A stretch of DNA of 20,934 bases from the IMG/VR virus record IMGVR_UViG_2703718809_000015; one strand, 5' to 3'. Both the position numbers and the translations under genes were made by a program. Every line of letters begins with the position of its first letter. Position 1 is the stretch's first letter. This document shows, one piece after another, positions 1,156 through 15,254 of this stretch. The notes under the pieces were generated by a model. The model worked only from the letters and a program-made list of their open reading frames with translations, ran no database searches and had not been told where the DNA came from. The DNA is from a virus. Lineage: Duplodnaviria > Heunggongvirae > Uroviricota > Caudoviricetes.

Positions 1156-1350
1156 TTTCTTAAATCTAACGACAGACGGCTAACATTTAAGTATTGTGAA
1201 ATATTATCAAATGTAATCATCATTGATTTACAAAAGATACATTTTGCCCCGAAAGGATTCCTGTCAGAAACATCAAAAGATGATGTTCTATACTGAGAAC
1301 CATGGCAACACGGGCATCTAAAGTGAATATGGTTTGTAATATTTTCTACC

Positions 1351-1563
1351 TCAAAGTGCCACTACATGAACAGCCGCGGGGCCTTTAGGTCCGTTCTCAA
1401 TACCAAATTCGACTTGCTGATTCTCAGTTAACGTTTTGAAATCGTTGCTCTGAATAGCTGAGAAATGGACAAACACATCTTTGCTACCATCTTTCGGCGT
1501 GATGAAACCAAAACCTTTTTCAGGGTTAAACCATTTCACTAAACCAGTCATTTTGTTAGACAT
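1351..1563 (-). CDS. cspI: Cold-shock protein, CspA family (CspI-like, 70 aa)
   Basis: Translation [26 protein letters not shown]...[13 protein letters not shown] carries the RNP-1-like motif KGFGFI and VFVHF. Tandem ATGs at 1561-1566 with AAGG upstream. Long AT-rich 5' region at 1567-1930, typical of csp genes. Confidence 0.85.
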
Positions 1564-1931
1564 CATTATTACCTTTTGAAGAAGTTAGCCCTTGGGCAGA
1601 ATGGTCCGAAAAAAATATCAGAGAGAAAAACCAACAAGGAAATCTCAAGAGGTACAAATAATAAAATTATAACAATGACTGCTTCAGATAATTTTGTAAC
1701 AAACCAGAACACCATTAACGCATGATTAACCAACCATAGCAAGGATTACTTTTGTAAAGAAAAACACACGAATGAAACAATAGCTTTATTTATTAATAAA
1801 ACGTGTCATTCTGTCTAATGACCTTTTATCTTACCCTTAAGATTTCAAGGATTTTGACTCATGGAAGAGTCCTTTTTATTTAAATTTCACATTCAGCACT
1901 AAAAATAATCCGATTTAATGTTAATCTACAT

Positions 1932-3058: not shown

Positions 3059-3331
3059 ATGGACAATAACACCATTTCTCTACAGGAGTTGCTCGACTGC
3101 ATTTCAAAGCTTCGGGATGATGTAAATGCCCTCACTGTTGCATTTTCATATTTGGCCTTATCAATTCCCAGAGAACAAATGCAACCAACACTGGCATCGC
3201 TCCTGCTTGAATCACGCAACCCCAAATGGTCCCAGGAACAACAAAATTCTTTCAAGTGGCTGGCGGCATTACTGGAAGAAAAATATGCTGGTAAAATTAC
3301 CATTTCGGTGGAGTCTTCAGAGAATCAGTAA
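3059..3331 (+). CDS. Hypothetical protein (90 aa) encoded antisense within the lysis cassette
   Basis: ATG at 3059 preceded by AGAGGA with 7-nt spacing; fills the otherwise empty 343-bp gap between the endolysin start and the YdfR-like stop; ordinary amino-acid composition. No family recognised. Confidence 0.4.
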   Translation: MDNNTISLQELLDCISKLRDDVNALTVAFSYLALSIPREQMQPTLASLLLESRNPKWSQEQQNSFKWLAALLEEKYAGKITISVESSENQ

Positions 3332-4338: not shown

Positions 4339-4613
4339 GTGGTACTTTTTGTGGGAGTCATCCACTTACGCACTTTGTTTTGCTATGCCAGCAGTTAGCT
4401 TCTGCTGTAAAACTATTCATGCAGCAAACCTGCACTTCACCACAATGGTTAGCATACTTTTCCTGATTAAGTTATTGCCAAATATGCTGGCCATTGTTTC
4501 ATGTATTGGACCTCCTTACTATTTATTAAAGAGATCCAATATTCACCACTCTGTCTGTATCTCCACTCAGGCATCAGCCTTCTTCGTTATCGTATACAGA
4601 CAAACTATGAATT

Positions 4614-4829
4614 TTAATCAGTAATTATGACATTTGCTGCTGCAGGACCTTTAGCACCACTCTCTACAGAGAAGGTAACCTTTTGACCTTCAAATAAGGT
4701 TCGATAATTATCATTCTGAATCGCAGAAAAATGCACAAACACATCTTTACTACCATCAACAGGAGAAATAAAGCCAAAACCTTTATCAGCGTTAAACCAT
4801 TTTACTAAACCAGTCATTTTATTTGACAT
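4614..4829 (-). CDS. cspB: Cold-shock protein, CspA family (CspB-like, 71 aa)
   Basis: Translation [71 protein letters not shown]; divergent from the cspF/H-like gene, as cspB-cspF are in Qin. Confidence 0.85.
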
Positions 4830-5129
4830 TCTACATTCCTTAACTTGAGCCTTTCGGCATAAATGGCTTGTATAACAGAAACGACTTCGTACTTAATTGG
4901 AGAGACTCAAAGAAGGAATAAGTGAATAACACCTGAAATGAGAACTGCTTTAGTAAACTACTTCGTATATCGTCTGTTCTTCAAACCGACGCAATCATTA
5001 ACGCATAGTTGAACATATGAAGCAATGTTTATTTTAGACATCCAGCCATCTTCAACCCCATCAAAAAACTATAGCTTTCTTCAGGAACGTGTGTATAGTG
5101 CGCCAAGTTATCAGTATTAAGGAATTTTT

Positions 5130-5764: not shown

Positions 5765-6517
5765 TTATCTCGTCACCTTTCTCAATTGTGCTTCAGCGTA
5801 AGATTCCTCCTGCCAGCACTTTGTAACCAGTTTATCAATGACATTTGCATATCCTTTATACCACTGATAATCACTCAGGTCCGGTACCAGCTTCTGGACA
5901 TGATGCCGCGCCAGTGTGGTTGGTAAACGACTAAACCGTTTTCCATTGCAACGCCCACAAATCTTATAAACAGGTGTGCCATGAAGCCGGGTCCTTTTTT
6001 CATCCAGGACAATACCTTTACCCTTACACCCTCTGCACGCTGTGCTGACTTCTCCCTTACCATGGCAATGCTGACATAGTTCCTTCACCCACTCTTCTTT
6101 GATAACAGATTCCCCGCTTCTGGAGTGTTTCACCACTTCGCGCAATACATTATGAAATCCAGTACCAGCACAATGCTCACAACGAGCCTTACTTGCCGCA
6201 GACCTGGAATAATCAGCAAAGGCAAAATTCACAAGGTAAGGAATAATCTGTAGCCGGGTTTCTTCACTCAATTTATTCAATGTCGGGTTATCCAGTGCCA
6301 TCGCGTAATTGAGCAGACCTTCAATCGCAAACTGAGGATCCTGAACACCAACTTTTGCCAGGAATAAGGCAAACCCAAGCGGTGCTTTCGACTGCACCAT
6401 CCCCTGCGCAGCCATCACATCCGTAATCGTTAAACCACCAGAGCCTGTCGCCGGTGCGTCATCACTCAATTTTGGAGATTTTGGGGAGTAATATTTTGGT
6501 AAGGCTTCAAGGTTCAT
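5765..6517 (-). CDS. Late-gene antiterminator Q (phage 21/82-type, zinc-binding), 250 aa
   Basis: Multiple CxxC motifs (CEHCAGTG, CQHCHGKG, CRGCKGKG, CGRCNGKR); 250 aa, the length of QuuQ in Qin; GGAG 8 nt upstream of the ATG; followed by a promoter-terminator pair. Confidence 0.75.
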   Translation of the reverse strand: MNLEALPKYYSPKSPKLSDDAPATGSGGLTITDVMAAQGMVQSKAPLGFALFLAKVGVQDPQFAIEGLLNYAMALDNPTLNKLSEETRLQIIPYLVNFAFADYSRSAASKARCEHCAGTGFHNVLREVVKHSRSGESVIKEEWVKELCQHCHGKGEVSTACRGCKGKGIVLDEKRTRLHGTPVYKICGRCNGKRFSRLPTTLARHHVQKLVPDLSDYQWYKGYANVIDKLVTKCWQEESYAEAQLRKVTR

Positions 6518-11232: not shown

Positions 11233-11453
11233 GCAGCACCTCCGAGATGCTTCATGTTTTTTCCGGAGCGAAAGGCTATAAGCGGCATACTGACGCGGTA
11301 ACTACGGCCCAGCGGTTCACAAATCACCTTCTGACATTCACGGTCAACCAGGCTAACACGTAGAACATGCCCTGCAGGTGTGGTGTACCACTGACCCGGA
11401 CGAGGACAACGGAAAGTCTGATTGGTAAACCGTTTGAAAATATTCCGGATCAT
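11229..11453 (-). CDS. Hypothetical protein (74 aa), translationally coupled between the Rha-domain ORF and the O-like gene
   Basis: ATGA overlaps at both ends (11450-11453 and 11229-11232). No family recognised. Confidence 0.45.
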   Translation of the reverse strand: MIRNIFKRFTNQTFRCPRPGQWYTTPAGHVLRVSLVDRECQKVICEPLGRSYRVSMPLIAFRSGKNMKHLGGAA

Positions 11454-12598
11454 TTGCGCCCCCTTACCTCTGAAGGGTTCAGCGACAAATTTATGAGGCA
11501 GGCCAGTGCCGAAGCATCATTAATATAGTCATACAAGCTAACAGCCAGCGGAGATTCGGCTTTTGCCAACATAGGATAAAGCTGCTGCAGCCAGACCTGA
11601 TGAATTGATGAAATGTAGGAATAGAGAATGCTGGCGTTATGTGCAACGTCGCTCGGTACAGAGGGTTTTGAAAGCTGTTTCTCCATCTGGTTAAAGGCAT
11701 TGATATATGCCTCTTTGAACTGGGCAGCACGTTTACCCGTGAAACCCATAGCAAGAAACGCAAAGCCGTCGCGGGTTATTTGATAGCAAGGTAGTTTGCG
11801 GCCTGATGCGTCGATGTACTCACTGAGCTGGAAATTCAGCTCAGTAAATTCGGCAGAGCATTCAAGAGACGCAATTTTTTGAATGACATTTTTGTGTTGT
11901 TTGCCGAAATAACTAGCAACAGCCAGAGAAGAAGTAACAACTTTGTCTGCAATAATGCAAAGTTCAGGTTGTACTAAGGCAGGGATCGTAGCCATGATGG
12001 CAGCCTCCGTATGCAATGGATAACTTCCACCACCGGAAACGCCAATTTCGCTGGTGGTGAACTGAGCAGGGTTGGCGTAACCGGCGCATACGGAAACCGG
12101 CGCACCTTTCGGTGCCCCCACCCAGCCCACCATAATTTGGGTATAGCTGAGTTGTAGCAACAAAAAAGACGCTAACGCGCCAATTGTCGCCGTATGCAAT
12201 TCCAGGACGCCAATCCCGGCACCCGCTTTATAAGGTGCCTGAACAGTGTAACGTCCCGGAATGGCAGAATCAATGTGCTGGTGGTCCTTCACACTCAACA
12301 AAATCACGCCTGAATTTCCACAAAGGACTAAAGCACTCATGCGGGTAGTCTTTGCGAAGATAGATAACGCGCTGTGTTTCTGGCTCCCAACGAATAACAT
12401 GAACATAAAGTCCTCTTCCGTCACGAAACCAGCGGTTAAGTTCCTGCACAACTCGCCCCCCACAGTCAGGTAAAGTTCTCTGTGGTTACTTACAGCCAGG
12501 TGATTTGGTAATCTGCATTCATGCCGTAACAACAGGTGTTCAGCCACGCGGACCACCAGCTGTTGCGACCAACGGTTATTTGCCGTTAAACTGTTCAT
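11450..12598 (-). CDS. Rha-domain phage regulatory protein; 382-aa ORF with an unrecognised about-200-aa N-terminal extension (alternative internal start at 11995 gives about 181 aa)
   Basis: C-terminal half LAVASYFGKQHKNVIQKI...GRKLPCYQITRDGFAFLAMGFTGKRAAQFKEAYINAFNQMEKQL matches the Rha signature. The ATG at 12596-12598 overlaps the stop of the upstream gene (ATGA); a second ATG at 11993-11995 has GGAGG 8 nt upstream. Confidence 0.6.
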   Translation of the reverse strand: MNSLTANNRWSQQLVVRVAEHLLLRHECRLPNHLAVSNHRELYLTVGGELCRNLTAGFVTEEDFMFMLFVGSQKHSALSIFAKTTRMSALVLCGNSGVILLSVKDHQHIDSAIPGRYTVQAPYKAGAGIGVLELHTATIGALASFLLLQLSYTQIMVGWVGAPKGAPVSVCAGYANPAQFTTSEIGVSGGGSYPLHTEAAIMATIPALVQPELCIIADKVVTSSLAVASYFGKQHKNVIQKIASLECSAEFTELNFQLSEYIDASGRKLPCYQITRDGFAFLAMGFTGKRAAQFKEAYINAFNQMEKQLSKPSVPSDVAHNASILYSYISSIHQVWLQQLYPMLAKAESPLAVSLYDYINDASALACLINLSLNPSEVRGRK

Positions 12599-13146
12599 GC
12601 GTTAGTTTCTCCACAGACACAAAACGCCACGACGCCCGGAGCTGCACACTCGCGGGCGTCACTCTTTTCTGGAACGCAGAAAATTTTGTAGACCAGTGCC
12701 GCATGTTCCTGGAGCTTCGAAATCGACAGATACAACTCATCATTAATTGCTGTCTGCTCATGTGGCTCCACTACCCCGTCTTCGATTGCCGAACGAATCT
12801 GCTTTGAGTAACTCCCGATCTGTTCAATAACTTCCAGTAGACGTTGGTTGATATCAGCGTTCTCTACTTCCTCAATTTCTGGAAGTGATACAAACACCCC
12901 ACCAGCAGACTGTGCGACAGCATCCGCAATGTGGTGAGTACCAGCCGCACGCTGTAAAACCATTGCCCATCCCAACGGAAAAAACTGATCGCCATCGGCA
13001 CGAAGGCGGTTAAATAATGCGTTATCTGTTACATCCAGCCAGTCAGCAGCTTCAGCGTAACCACCTGGTAATGCCGCGATAGTTTTTCTGACAGCTTTCA
13101 CGTACCAGTCAGGTTGTTTTTCCACTTTCCAGTGATACTTACCCAC
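12595..13146 (-). CDS. Putative phage regulatory protein at the cII position (183 aa), GTG start
   Basis: Directly downstream of the cro-like gene; GTG at 13144-13146 preceded by AGGAGG with 6-nt spacing. Functional assignment is positional only. Confidence 0.45.
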   Translation of the reverse strand: MGKYHWKVEKQPDWYVKAVRKTIAALPGGYAEAADWLDVTDNALFNRLRADGDQFFPLGWAMVLQRAAGTHHIADAVAQSAGGVFVSLPEIEEVENADINQRLLEVIEQIGSYSKQIRSAIEDGVVEPHEQTAINDELYLSISKLQEHAALVYKIFCVPEKSDARECAAPGVVAFCVCGETNA

Positions 13147-13399
13147 GGCTTACCTCCTGTTCCTGTGGTTTTAACTCATTCTGGTTTTGACTAGATTGAA
13201 AGCGCGCAGGATAGAGAATCTGCATTTCGCTGATTTCTCCCTTAAAAAAATTGGCCAGACGCTCTGCAAGATCGATAGATGGAATTTGTTCCAGTCTCTC
13301 AATACGACTCAGCGTCGCTGGATTAACCTGAACGCCCGCAGCAACATGCTGCAAAGTAAACCCATGCGCCTTACGCACATTTCGTAATGGTGATTGCAT
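13139..13399 (-). CDS. cro: Cro-like HTH (XRE-family) regulator, 86 aa
   Basis: HTH segment FTLQHVAAGVQVNPATLSRIERLEQIPSIDLAERLANFF; divergent from the cI-like gene across an operator region; GGAGG 4 nt upstream of the ATG. Confidence 0.7.
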   Translation of the reverse strand: MQSPLRNVRKAHGFTLQHVAAGVQVNPATLSRIERLEQIPSIDLAERLANFFKGEISEMQILYPARFQSSQNQNELKPQEQEVSRG

Positions 13400-13496
13400 A
13401 TAACCTCCACATATTGCGTGATAAGCATATTATTTCACGCAAATGTTTTGCGCAAGTTGATTTGCTTAACGCGCAATAAAGAAATGTAATAAACGC
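13400..13496. promoter_or_regulatory. oR-like region: divergent pR / pRM with TTGC-N7-GCAA operator candidates
   Basis: Operator-like sites TTGCTTAACGCGCAA (13462-13476) and TTGCGTGATAAGCAT (13413-13427). pR on the minus strand: TTGCGC (13450-13455), 17 nt, TAATAT (13427-13432). TAATAA at 13487-13492 sits just before the cI ATG, suggesting a near-leaderless cI transcript. Confidence 0.5.
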
Positions 13497-14189
13497 ATGA
13501 ACATAGGAAACCGAGTCAGACAACTTCGCCAAGCGAAGAACATGAAAATCGCCGATCTCGCTGAAGCAATAGGAGTGGATGCGGCGAATATCTCGCGCCT
13601 GGAAACAGGTAAGCAGAAACAATTCACTGAACAAGCCCTGAGTAATATTGCCAGGAGCTTAGGTGTTGATATTGCTGATCTCTTTACCTCAGACGTCAAA
13701 AGTAATACTGTATATAAAAACAGTGTTAGTGAGGATGTTGCGCAGGTGAAGGATGTATTCCGTATTGAAATGCTGGATGTCAGTGCCAGTGCGGGAAATG
13801 GCCTTATCCAGGGCGGTGATGTCATTGATGTGATTCATGCCATTGAATACAGAACTGATAATGCTGTATCGATGTTTGGCGGACGACCAGCCAATCACAT
13901 TAAAGTTATCAACGTTCGTGGGGACAGTATGTGTCCAACCATTGAGCCAGGAGATCTCATCTTCGTTGATGTCAGTATCAATCAGTTTGATGGAGATGGT
14001 ATCTATGTATTTGGTTTTGATGATAAAATTTACGTTAAACGACTGCAAATGATACCCGACAAACTGCTGGTAATTTCGGATAATCAGATTTACCGTGAAT
14101 GGGGAATTACCAGCGAAAATGAACACCGGTTTATGGTCTTTGGAAAGGTCTTAATCAGCCAGTCACAAACTCTTAAGCGACACAATTAA
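13497..14189 (+). CDS. cI: CI-like repressor (HTH XRE domain plus S24 LexA-like autopeptidase domain), 230 aa
   Basis: N-terminal HTH (MKIADLAEAIGVDAANISRLETGKQ); C-terminal GDSM serine motif and VKRL lysine; Ala-Gly in the linker (SASAGNG). Confidence 0.85.
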   Translation: MNIGNRVRQLRQAKNMKIADLAEAIGVDAANISRLETGKQKQFTEQALSNIARSLGVDIADLFTSDVKSNTVYKNSVSEDVAQVKDVFRIEMLDVSASAGNGLIQGGDVIDVIHAIEYRTDNAVSMFGGRPANHIKVINVRGDSMCPTIEPGDLIFVDVSINQFDGDGIYVFGFDDKIYVKRLQMIPDKLLVISDNQIYREWGITSENEHRFMVFGKVLISQSQTLKRHN

Positions 14190-14209
14190 CCCTTACCTCC
14201 TCATCAATT

Positions 14210-14236
14210 AGCCACCCGAAGGTGGCTTTTCATTTC
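14210..14236 (+). terminator. Intrinsic terminator after cI
   Basis: Stem AGCCACC-cgaa-GGTGGCT followed by TTTTCATTT. Confidence 0.65.
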
Positions 14237-14240
14237 CCAT

Positions 14241-14300
14241 AAAATTGCATATCTCGCAATAAAAACACTTGCATAATGCGCAACTTCATTTTATCTTTCT
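14241..14300 (+). promoter_or_regulatory. oL-like operator pair with candidate pL
   Basis: TTGCATATCTCGCAA (14245-14259) and TTGCATAATGCGCAA (14269-14283), same TTGC-N7-GCAA pattern as oR, centres 24 bp apart. Exact -35/-10 not resolved. Confidence 0.4.
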
Positions 14301-14708
14301 TTCCAGACCAACAAACAAGGTACGAACAAAATTTGGTTGTAACACGGCGTATGGCACATGCGTCGTTAGCGGTCTGGGGACGTTAAAGGGGACAATCCAC
14401 TCCTTGCTCGGGCAAACAAACCAGGTAGCCGGAATGTGCAAGTCAATGATGATGCTGATAAGACGCCTAACCAGCGTGGCGATTCGGTTTGACGCCTGGG
14501 AAGAGACCAGGGTGCAACGATGAGGGCATTTATGGAGCCGCGACAAAGTGTGGTGCCGTAACTGGCTAAGTGCTCTCAGCGTTGTGGTAATCCGCGAAAT
14601 GGCGCGGCGGTAAGTATGGCGGGGTTACTCTTTCCCCGTTGAGGACACCGGATTGTCAGGTTGACCATACGCCTGAGTGACAACCCCACCACAACAGCCA
14701 CTGCTTTG

Positions 14709-14754
14709 GCGGTACCAGTTTGTACACTTGCTTCCGGCTGGTACCGCTCTTTTT
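14709..14754 (+). terminator. Intrinsic terminator in the early-left leader
   Basis: 10-bp perfect stem GCGGTACCAG ... CTGGTACCGC with a 19-nt loop, followed by TCTTTTT. Confidence 0.45.
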
Positions 14755-14891
14755 ACAAAACAGAGAAGAGCATCGCCGGACGACGGGCTCATAACCCAAT
14801 CCATCCGGGCGGCTGCCACCGCAGGTGTTCTTCTCTGTTTTGTGGAGAAACCAACCGACCTTGCAGGGTCGATATGATGAGGAGCAGCAAA

Positions 14892-15254
14892 ATGGCTAGC
14901 GAACGCAGTACTGATGTGCAGACATTTATCGGGGAGCTGGACGGCGGCGTATTTGAAACCAAAATCGGCGCTGTTCTCAGTGAAGTCGCTTCCGGTGTGA
15001 TGAACACGAAAACCAAAGGTAAGGTCTCGCTCAACCTGGAAATCGAACCGTTTGATGAGAACCGTGTGAAAATCAAACACAAACTCTCATATGTTCGCCC
15101 GACTAACCGCGGGAAAATTTCCGAAGAAGACACCACCGAAACGCCGATGTATGTCAATCGCGGTGGTCGCCTGACTATTCTGCAGGAAGACCAGGGACAA
15201 TTACTGACTCTTGCCGGTGAACCTGACGGAAAACTCCGCGCAGCAGGTCGTTAA
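14892..15254 (+). CDS. yfdP: YfdP-like prophage protein (120 aa)
   Basis: ATG at 14892 preceded by GAGGAG with 7-nt spacing; first of four consecutive genes whose lengths (120, 274, 178, 120 aa) match the CPS-53 yfdP-yfdS block as I recall it. The in-frame upstream extension in the track is leader, not coding. Confidence 0.55.
   Translation: MASERSTDVQTFIGELDGGVFETKIGAVLSEVASGVMNTKTKGKVSLNLEIEPFDENRVKIKHKLSYVRPTNRGKISEEDTTETPMYVNRGGRLTILQEDQGQLLTLAGEPDGKLRAAGR

Follow-up and report, generated by a model that had tools for sequence, protein, structure and literature searches.

The early-left leader of phage λ carries boxA, boxB and an RNase III-sensitive hairpin before the N gene, and DicF, among the oldest known bacterial small RNAs, has been treated as a single 53-nucleotide (nt) species of one cryptic prophage. 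DicF is a genuine trans-acting regulator, and RNase III makes its 72-nt form and 3' end (PMC5069750). In the dicBF operon a 190-nt species is RNase III-dependent and the 53-nt DicF is RNase E-dependent, transcripts terminated at dicF and transcripts read through into dicB have both been detected, and the 190-nt species, which includes the domain that we call module B, accumulates in stationary phase in E. coli K-12 (PMC10448788). We describe here the leader at positions 14237–14891 of a 20,934-nt stretch of viral DNA (IMG/VR record IMGVR_UViG_2703718809_000015; "the window" below means the whole of this stretch). The original prediction had read it as one structured early-left leader without an N-like gene that might act by put-like RNA antitermination, as an attenuator, or as the source of a small RNA ending at a terminator. 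By sequence comparison it is an array of separately conserved noncoding modules that recur in other phages in differing combinations: module A, a spacer hairpin, module B, a terminator hairpin RNA and a long hairpin (module C) precede, in that order, the ribosome-binding site of the first gene. We put at roughly 0.6 the probability that the leader is a polycistronic array of structured noncoding RNAs on the plan of the dicBF operon, transcribed from the early-left promoter.

Module B (14581–14695, on the plus strand like the other four parts of the array) is a closed, pseudoknotted domain that corresponds to the 5' part of the DicF precursor. Positions 14581–14703 share 89% identity over 123 nt with a stretch of the E. 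coli K-12 Qin prophage whose end is 9 nt short of dicF, and module B also matches a stretch of phage P1 annotated as a "dicF-like region". It is built of five helices, the closing stem P1 (14581–88 with 14688–95), P2 (CCGCG-AAATGG-CGCGG, 14592–96 with 14603–07), the pseudoknot P3 (14614–19 with 14665–70), P4 ((G)CGGGG-TTACTCTTT-CCCCG, 14620–24 with 14634–38, within 14619–14638) and P5 (14650–58 with 14678–86); the two GC-rich hairpins reported earlier at 14592–14607 and 14619–14638 are present and are conserved and covarying across homologues as P2 and P4 of this domain. In an alignment of 37 sequences (A2), 94.4% of the module B cells pair, against 32–57% in the control, the same alignment with the helix partners slid. 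Eight pairs have changed on both sides, a count that, like the others given here, is optimistic, the homologues having been gathered through exact matches to conserved motifs and being closely related, with the anchor columns fixed. The changes include exchanges of G-U with G-C or A-U in the closing stem, which argues for selection on RNA and not on DNA repeats. Folding significance was expressed as a z-score plus a count among 200 shuffles; the whole domain folds with z = -1.06, and the two 5-bp GC hairpins are unremarkable alone.

Directly 3' of this conserved precursor domain, at the position of dicF, a putative small RNA of a type that we call W (14696–14754) ends at an intrinsic terminator (stem 14708–14720 with 14736–14748, then C and U5). 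The perfect 10-bp stem noticed earlier is there (GCGGTACCAG at 14709–14718 with CTGGTACCGC at 14738–14747, followed by TCTTTTT; 13 bp counting wobble pairs), and it has the G+C-rich stem and U-run of such terminators; its fold has an energy of -21.5 kcal/mol and z = -3.4, and none of 200 shuffles is as good. A simple terminator scan missed 14709–14754 because the loop, which is 15 nt long and pyrimidine-rich (UGUACACUUGCUUCC), is above the scan's 8-nt limit. Positions 14705–14721 align with the start of the DicF terminator stem (94% over 17 nt, TTTGGCGGTAYCAGTTT being common to both), and the W type keeps UUUGGCGGUAYCAGUUU and the CCGC-U-run base. The DicF 5' seed UUUCUGGUGACG and the ftsZ-pairing loop ACUCCGUGACUGCUCU are both absent from it, about 20 nt are missing 5' of UUUGGCGG relative to DicF, and the Rfam DicF model (RF00039), which scores 76.7 bits on Qin dicF, gives no match at its gathering score or at E <= 10 on 14150–14950 and 14640–14765. 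Among the three modes of action proposed earlier, a small RNA ending at the terminator fits best, given the dicF position 3' of the precursor domain; an attenuator with alternative pairing was not borne out, the leader upstream being complementary to the terminator 5' arm over at most 6 nt. The AgvB/AsxR anti-small RNAs and the Pas small RNAs were rejected as relatives, since they occupy the late region or moron sites.

A scan of public viral contigs for a module B motif extends this arrangement. The domain of about 115 nt is conserved and is followed by at least ten types of terminator-hairpin RNA, of which canonical DicF and the window type are the commonest; across the types the base of the terminator stem is conserved and the apical part varies. 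Natural DicF chimeras also occur (loci L027, L040, L046, L014, L062, L101, L007 and L032), some with the DicF 5' seed and a short unrelated terminator hairpin, others with the loop and a different 5' part; since they keep one or the other, the two seed regions seem to have been exchanged independently. In phage P1 (locus L003, ~3190–3205) the ban leader carries, just after module A, ATTTTCTGGTGA, which is identical to the DicF 5' seed region, and no DicF-type terminator hairpin follows it.

Upstream of module B, the spacer hairpin (14521–14578) consists of an outer helix, 14521–14531 with 14568–14578, and an inner hairpin at 14537–14554. Its 5' strand lies just after the preceding module and its 3' strand just before GTTGTGG. 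It folds at -25 kcal/mol (z = -2.7), and in a comparison of 12 sequence types cognate strands have a mean pairing energy of -17.7 kcal/mol, non-cognate combinations one of -8.5. The boxA-like octamer TGCTCTCA is indeed found at 14571–14578, but its reading as boxA did not hold: it falls within the 3' strand of the outer helix, and is thus one strand of a covarying helix of 9–12 bp. Variants of this strand are TGCTCTC, TGCGCTT, TCATCTT, CCGTTTCC and ATCCTTACC, and the pairing partner changes along with them; Qin-type homologues, for instance, have TGCGCTT in place of the octamer and a partner altered to match. A λ-type nut site was accordingly rejected, the octamer being helix-paired and variable across the 12 types, with no N gene following.

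On the other side of the terminator, module C (14750–14848) begins within the terminator U-run. The 11-bp inverted repeat previously seen at 14759–14769 and 14829–14839 is real but its size was understated, since the perfect arms run through 15 bp (14755–14769 and 14829–14843) and the whole fold has about 25 pairs including the U-run (-49.9 kcal/mol, z = -7.3, 0 of 200 shuffles). The terminator and module C are the two thermodynamically strongest features of the leader. Module C closes 35 nt before the Shine-Dalgarno sequence, shows a compensatory A>C/T>G change in one homologue (L038), is common to SfV, SfII and ST64B, and in SfV and SfII travels with the yfdP-like gene that follows it in the window. 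In the Qin type a hairpin of 14–19 bp opens 3–5 nt past the DicF terminator and ends immediately ahead of the dicB ribosome-binding site. Arithmetic on the published RNA lengths leads, 190 nt back from the DicF 3' end, to the Qin spacer-helix strand TGCGCTT and, 19 nt forward of that end, to the 5' arm of the 14–19 bp hairpin, so the published RNase III ends would fall within the spacer helix and the long hairpin. By analogy, module C is a probable RNase III site separating the small RNA from the downstream mRNA.

Module A (about 14331–14520, roughly 190 nt) is a conserved structured RNA, with a separate alignment (A3) in which 98.4% of the cells pair in the consensus versus 31–44% with slid partners. 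Nine pairs (44 cells) have changed on both sides, mainly in three hairpins, and the core rod is invariant, as are the blocks GGCACATG, TAGCGGTCTG, CAGGTAGCCGGAATGTGCAAG and GGCGATTCGGTKTGAC and a GGAAGAG loop. The 5' part can adopt two mutually exclusive folds, a hairpin at 14345–14365 or a long-range rod, both of which fit all sequences; the one compensatory pair here is limited to the local hairpin. Module A belongs to no Rfam family and is conserved in P1-like, Uetakevirus-like and lambdoid elements as well as in Kluyvera, Citrobacter, Erwinia and Pseudescherichia genomes. It is 79% identical to phage P1 71010–71194, where it stands directly after tRNA-Ile and before ban, and 83% identical to a Uetakevirus sequence directly 5' of tRNA-Arg; in O157 typing phage 9 the matching block, 14344–14587 of the window, ends at the start of tRNA-Arg. 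A tRNA gene adjoins the module directly in 33 of the 60 loci that have the module A motif, tRNA-Arg(UCU) downstream in 19 and tRNA-Ile2(CAU) upstream in 14. A genome-wide scan of 596 gigabases (Gb) with a module A 17-mer gave seven matches that also have a second module A block, all of them in Enterobacterales and genuine module A, and 27 matches in other phyla, about the chance expectation estimated for 596 Gb. In typing phage 9 (locus L004, ~2470–2500) a sigma-70-like site, TTGAAC-16 nt-TATTTT, was seen by eye directly before module A, which would there begin at or near +1; on this by-eye reading the Uetakevirus unit would consist of module A, tRNA-Arg, the terminator hairpin and one gene.

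Between module A with its spacer and the terminator hairpin there is an interchangeable slot, in which the flanks GTTGTGG and CCACAAC enclose differing contents in different elements. The window and Qin have module B in it, mEp460 has another core between those flanks, and Kluyvera, Erwinia and Pseudescherichia have further cores, at times two in tandem. In Uetakevirus it holds a genuine tRNA-Arg(UCU), whose acceptor stem starts at GTGG and which is bordered by module A on one side and by a GGCGG...CCGCCCTTTTT terminator hairpin on the other. The elements always keep one orientation with respect to the tRNA genes and terminators beside them. T-arm-like fragments, GGTTCAATTCC, GTCCGTTCGATTCGGAC and CCCGGTTCGATTCCGGG, occur in some arrays, either in the spacer (loci L206/L217) or in the slot (L150/L353); they may be decayed tRNAs, and ARAGORN called no tRNA in L150 and L217, the two of these loci scanned.

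The blocks of the leader have different relatives in BLAST comparisons with phage records, which does not bear out its description as one leader. Positions 14331–14508 are related to P1, P7, D6 and SJ46, 14344–14587 to the Uetakevirus phages phiV10, TL-2011b and O157 typing phage 9, 14581–14703 to PPompW-type prophages and mEp460_ev081, and 14707–14891 to SfV, SfII and ST64B. Of 5426 complete E. coli genomes, 1106 carry 80% or more of the leader and 4767 carry some portion of it. The leader has no convincing coding potential, as originally predicted: none of its six reading frames is kept open across homologues, each being stopped in several of them, so that no missed N-like protein appears there; its open reading frames (ORFs) have no Pfam match; RefSeq annotates no gene on it among the best-matching E. 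coli genomes listed; and the gaps within the conserved blocks are of 1, 2 and 4 alignment columns, lengths that are not multiples of three. In mEp460 (locus L001, 3097–3650) the hypothetical ORFs mEp460_036 and mEp460_037 overlap modules A and B on the opposite strand; these and similar opposite-strand ORFs in other phage records are probably spurious calls. That the region is a structured RNA is upheld by the conserved, covarying helices, and an Rfam scan, proposed as a check on this, assigned no family in the leader at the gathering or a permissive threshold, with chance-level matches only (E > 1). The homologous loci matched only tRNAs, C4, isrK and canonical DicF. ARAGORN found no tRNA gene in the window, and Rfam no tRNA or tmRNA match in the leader.

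We propose that transcription would start at the early-left promoter and that part of the transcripts would stop at the terminator at 14754, giving a precursor of module B and the short RNA. This precursor may then be trimmed by RNase III, acting on the spacer helix, and by RNase E, acting at a site that parts module B from the terminator hairpin; what is left would be a short RNA that probably binds Hfq and finds its target through the variable loop. Other transcripts would read through the terminator and supply the early-left mRNA, from which RNase III, cutting the long hairpin, would part the RNA portion from the yfdP-like message; neither an N protein nor a put RNA would take part. Several points weigh against this proposal. 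The match to the promoter is weak in a consensus scan. The Qin RNase III positions come from arithmetic on RNA lengths and are not mapped coordinates, and exact-motif sampling of related homologues inflates the covariation counts. The 15-nt loop and the C between stem and U-run make the efficiency of the terminator unpredictable. A trans-acting role would follow purely by analogy: ftsZ was rejected as a target, the pairing of the W-type RNA with the ftsZ start region being worse than shuffles in what is a weak test (DicF itself gives p = 0.12), and a search of the 20.9-kb window for targets of the loop or 5' tail gave nothing above shuffled controls but a trivial antisense match.

Other accounts of the leader deserve consideration beside the dicBF-like one. 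Stable RNAs of unknown function are also made from the tRNA clusters of phage T4, and a tRNA 3' trailer can have a regulatory role, as 3'ETS-leuZ does. With these as precedents, modules A and B might be stable RNAs processed like tRNAs, the terminator hairpin being their 3' trailer or stop and the function (as decoys, for example, or in tRNA-related roles) lying in the folded modules; the real tRNA in the Uetakevirus slot, the tRNA genes adjoining module A, the T-arm-like fragments in some slots and the 7–8 bp closing stem of module B, whose tail N(N)CC(A/C) recalls the 3' end of a tRNA, would all suit this. So would the stationary-phase accumulation in K-12 of the 190-nt species that contains module B (PMC10448788), but DicF, the best-studied occupant of the trailer position, acts in trans (PMC5069750). 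Module B, moreover, has no recognisable T-loop or anticodon arm, the ARAGORN and Rfam searches found no tRNA or tmRNA, and this account, which we think unlikely, overlaps the dicBF-like array instead of excluding it. We consider it distinctly unlikely that the leader works by cis-acting RNA antitermination, in which module A would most plausibly bind RNA polymerase or Nus factors and give read-through past 14754 and later terminators, replacing N as put does in HK022. Protein genes do lie beyond a terminator, with no N-like gene, in the window and in Uetakevirus (in the order promoter-like site, module A, tRNA-Arg, terminator hairpin, gene), the long invariant stretches of module A exceed the needs of base-pairing, as expected of a protein-binding RNA, and its 5' hairpin has, besides the one compensatory pair, the 5-bp helix CGGCG/CGUCG and the 9-mer CAUGCGUCG of putL stem I. 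Yet a covariance model (R1) built from 15 put sequences (HK022 putL and putR, HK639 putL and relatives), run with filters off on the whole window, found no match in 14237–14891 at E <= 10, its best score, 7.8 bits, falling outside the leader; the position of G35, which is essential in put, is U or A in module A; the 9-mer is absent from putR, so the resemblance, a weak lead, may be chance; P1 has module A far downstream of its dicF-like terminator and directly before ban with no terminator between; and dicBF gives read-through with module B but, a short 3'-end-like stretch apart, without module A. The put-like antitermination first suggested is thus not borne out, and HK022-type put was rejected, the flagged hairpins, P2 and P4, sitting in a pseudoknotted domain closed by an 8-bp stem and not in a two-stem RNA. 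We hold it similarly unlikely that module A represents a previously undescribed class of RNA that acts in cis on RNA polymerase during transcription, a large and distant counterpart of put for N-less phages, with the spacer helix, the GUUGUGG/CCACAAC stem and the terminator hairpin forming a general phage cassette for tRNAs, the DicF-precursor domain and other folded RNAs; if true, module A would let N-less phages express genes behind noncoding RNA and tRNA cassettes past a DicF-type terminator.

A plainer possibility, which we judge very unlikely, is that the leader serves for insulation and translational control, with a tL-type stop, a long hairpin that controls the first mRNA through RNase III as in the λ N leader, and no functional small RNA. 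The strength of the terminator and the long hairpin, the closing of the latter 35 nt before the Shine-Dalgarno sequence, its association with the yfdP-like gene in SfV and SfII, and the empty target searches (ftsZ start, window) are all what it would lead one to expect. It leaves unexplained why some 350 nt upstream, spanning modules A and B with the spacer, should be conserved and covary among phages of unrelated types, and why a constant stem base goes with a variable apex in at least ten types, a pattern typical of RNAs whose loop gives specificity. Finally, the hypothetical opposite-strand ORFs in some phage records (mEp460_036 and mEp460_037, for example) and the coincidence of module boundaries with mosaic junctions could point to a missed small protein gene, N-like or other, or to a DNA-level element such as a recombination or replication site. 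We regard this as extremely improbable in the face of frames that are all stopped in several homologues, the lack of a Pfam match, gaps of 1, 2 and 4 columns in conserved blocks, helices that swap G-U with G-C and A-U, as fits RNA and not DNA pairing, and an orientation that never varies with respect to the tRNA genes and terminators alongside.

The window comes from a lambdoid prophage of the kind to which SfV, SfII, mEp460, cdtI and CPS-53 belong. Upstream of the leader lies a cI-type repressor gene (13497–14189, plus strand; helix-turn-helix and peptidase S24), whose own terminator (14210–14232) stands 3' of the gene and before the operators; a Cro-like gene (13139–13399, minus strand) is followed by a CII(CP76)-like gene and then a Rha/Ash gene. 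Farther along are an O-like replication gene, a Q-like antiterminator gene (5765–6517) and lysis genes. The oL-like operators of the original prediction are supported: two copies of TTGC-N7-GCAA (14245–14259 and 14269–14283, plus strand) overlap the presumed early-left promoter, and across all 20.9 kb of the window only one further site, at 13462, fits the pattern without mismatch. It lies between the cro-like gene and the cI-like one, and all three copies are in the immunity region. A candidate pL promoter was read by eye on the plus strand, with a -35 sequence TTGCAT at 14269–74 and a -10 sequence TATCTT at 14292–97; a simple consensus promoter scan found no strong sigma-70 match for it, and an early-left promoter at the operators is reasonable, the start of transcription presumably lying there. 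At the other end, a small hairpin (14856–61 with 14866–71, plus strand) is not significant (z = -0.4), and the Shine-Dalgarno sequence GAGGAG (14879–14884, plus strand) precedes the first early-left gene, a yfdP-like gene at 14892–15254 on the plus strand with its ATG at 14892 (PHROG 204, function unknown; no Pfam match); the second is yfdQ-like (DUF2303). From 14873 onward the sequence is 97% identical to the yfdP region of E. coli K-12, whose CPS-53 retains only the sequence from 14873 on. Because the K-12 match begins only there, K-12 has lost the whole leader, and with the leader deleted in its CPS-53 it was rejected as a source of transcriptomes.

Other RNA elements were seen in the window and its relatives. 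Rfam identifies a C4 antisense RNA (80.7 bits) beside an isrK-type RNA (61.2 bits) at 12050–12238 on the minus strand, inside an ORF at 11450–12598. The pair, which mEp460 carries as well, coincides with the Pfam "Phage_ASH" domain (amino acids 117–212) of this ORF, annotated as Rha/antirepressor in relatives; the arrangement resembles the control of an antirepressor by RNA known from P1 immI or Gifsy-1 isrK-anrP, and probably either the start of the ORF is over-extended or the Pfam domain is partly translated RNA genes. Two cspA-type thermoregulator 5' leaders with cold-shock protein genes (4551–4990 and 1305–1720, minus strand; 156.7 and 113.7 bits) lie downstream of the Q-like gene (5765–6517), in a late-region moron position. 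Phage P1 (locus L003, 2071–2190, between upl and tciA in the region of the ban operon) has a sub-threshold match to the prophage small RNA STnc100 (33.4 bits, gathering score 47).

These comparisons suggest that DicF is one member of a family that combines a shared precursor domain and terminator base with at least ten apical or seed parts. Roughly one complete E. coli genome in five carries the window variant, as do active temperate phages (Stx2c-converting phages, mEp460 and cdtI among them), and if such RNAs are made on induction, they would be candidates for regulators with which Shiga-toxin phages manipulate the host. For the published RNase III cuts that flank DicF, the conserved helices suggest a structural basis. 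Module A is a covarying RNA of about 190 nt tied to phage tRNA genes in P1, Uetakevirus and lambdoid phages, with no Rfam family and no description found. A literature search with the conserved sequence strings and "dicF-like" returned nothing relevant, though variants may have been described earlier.

Like the λ leader, that of the window is early-left, long and untranslated; in both, a short hairpin comes after a boxA-like octamer, and a large hairpin of RNase III type stands directly ahead of the first gene's ribosome-binding site. It differs in having no N gene, in an octamer that is a strand of a covarying helix and has a different sequence in the Qin type, and in a short hairpin that has a 6-nt loop and lies within a closed domain. 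With put of HK022 and HK639 it has in common a promoter-proximal structured RNA in an N-less lambdoid early operon and the stem I elements in the 5' hairpin of module A. The put consensus, however, is two stems, GAACGGCS...SGUCGG and GGCGGG-YUCAGGAWGARC-GGCAAU, in about 70 nt, whereas the RNAs here are a multi-helix one of about 190 nt and a pseudoknotted one of 115 nt; the HK639 "M3-like RNA" was unrelated by eye. Like the tRNA-trailer RNAs (3'ETS-leuZ, T4), the W-type RNA is a short, terminator-ended RNA 3' of a closed unit, which can be a real tRNA, and RNase E generates the 5' ends of DicF and of tRNA trailers alike; this is an analogy of layout only, module B not being a recognisable tRNA. 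In P1 the "dicF-like region" (NC_005856, 68791–68892) of the ban operon is a module B homologue followed by a terminator hairpin, in a repressor-controlled operon that also has tRNA genes and module A, but the elements run in the opposite order and over a longer distance, module B leading with its terminator and module A following about 2.2 kb downstream, and the closing-stem and terminator sequences are unlike those of the window.

The dicBF locus resembles the window at more points. Both lie in a lambdoid immunity region downstream of a repressor-controlled promoter of early-left type, the precursor domain is 89% identical, the terminator hairpins agree in position and in stem base, each is separated by a long hairpin from the ribosome-binding site of the gene that follows, and the published RNase III and RNase E processing and partial read-through fit the structures of the leader. 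The differences are that the window RNA lacks the DicF 5' seed and ftsZ-pairing loop and fails the Rfam DicF model, that Qin has three protein genes (ydfABC) before the RNA where the window has module A and the spacer hairpin, that Qin lacks module A apart from a short 3'-end-like stretch, and that the downstream gene is yfdP-like in the window and dicB in Qin. Judged against Rfam, the phage annotations and the literature searched, the plan of the DicF locus is the known part of this leader, and the variant in the DicF slot, module A and the cassette-like layout are its new parts.

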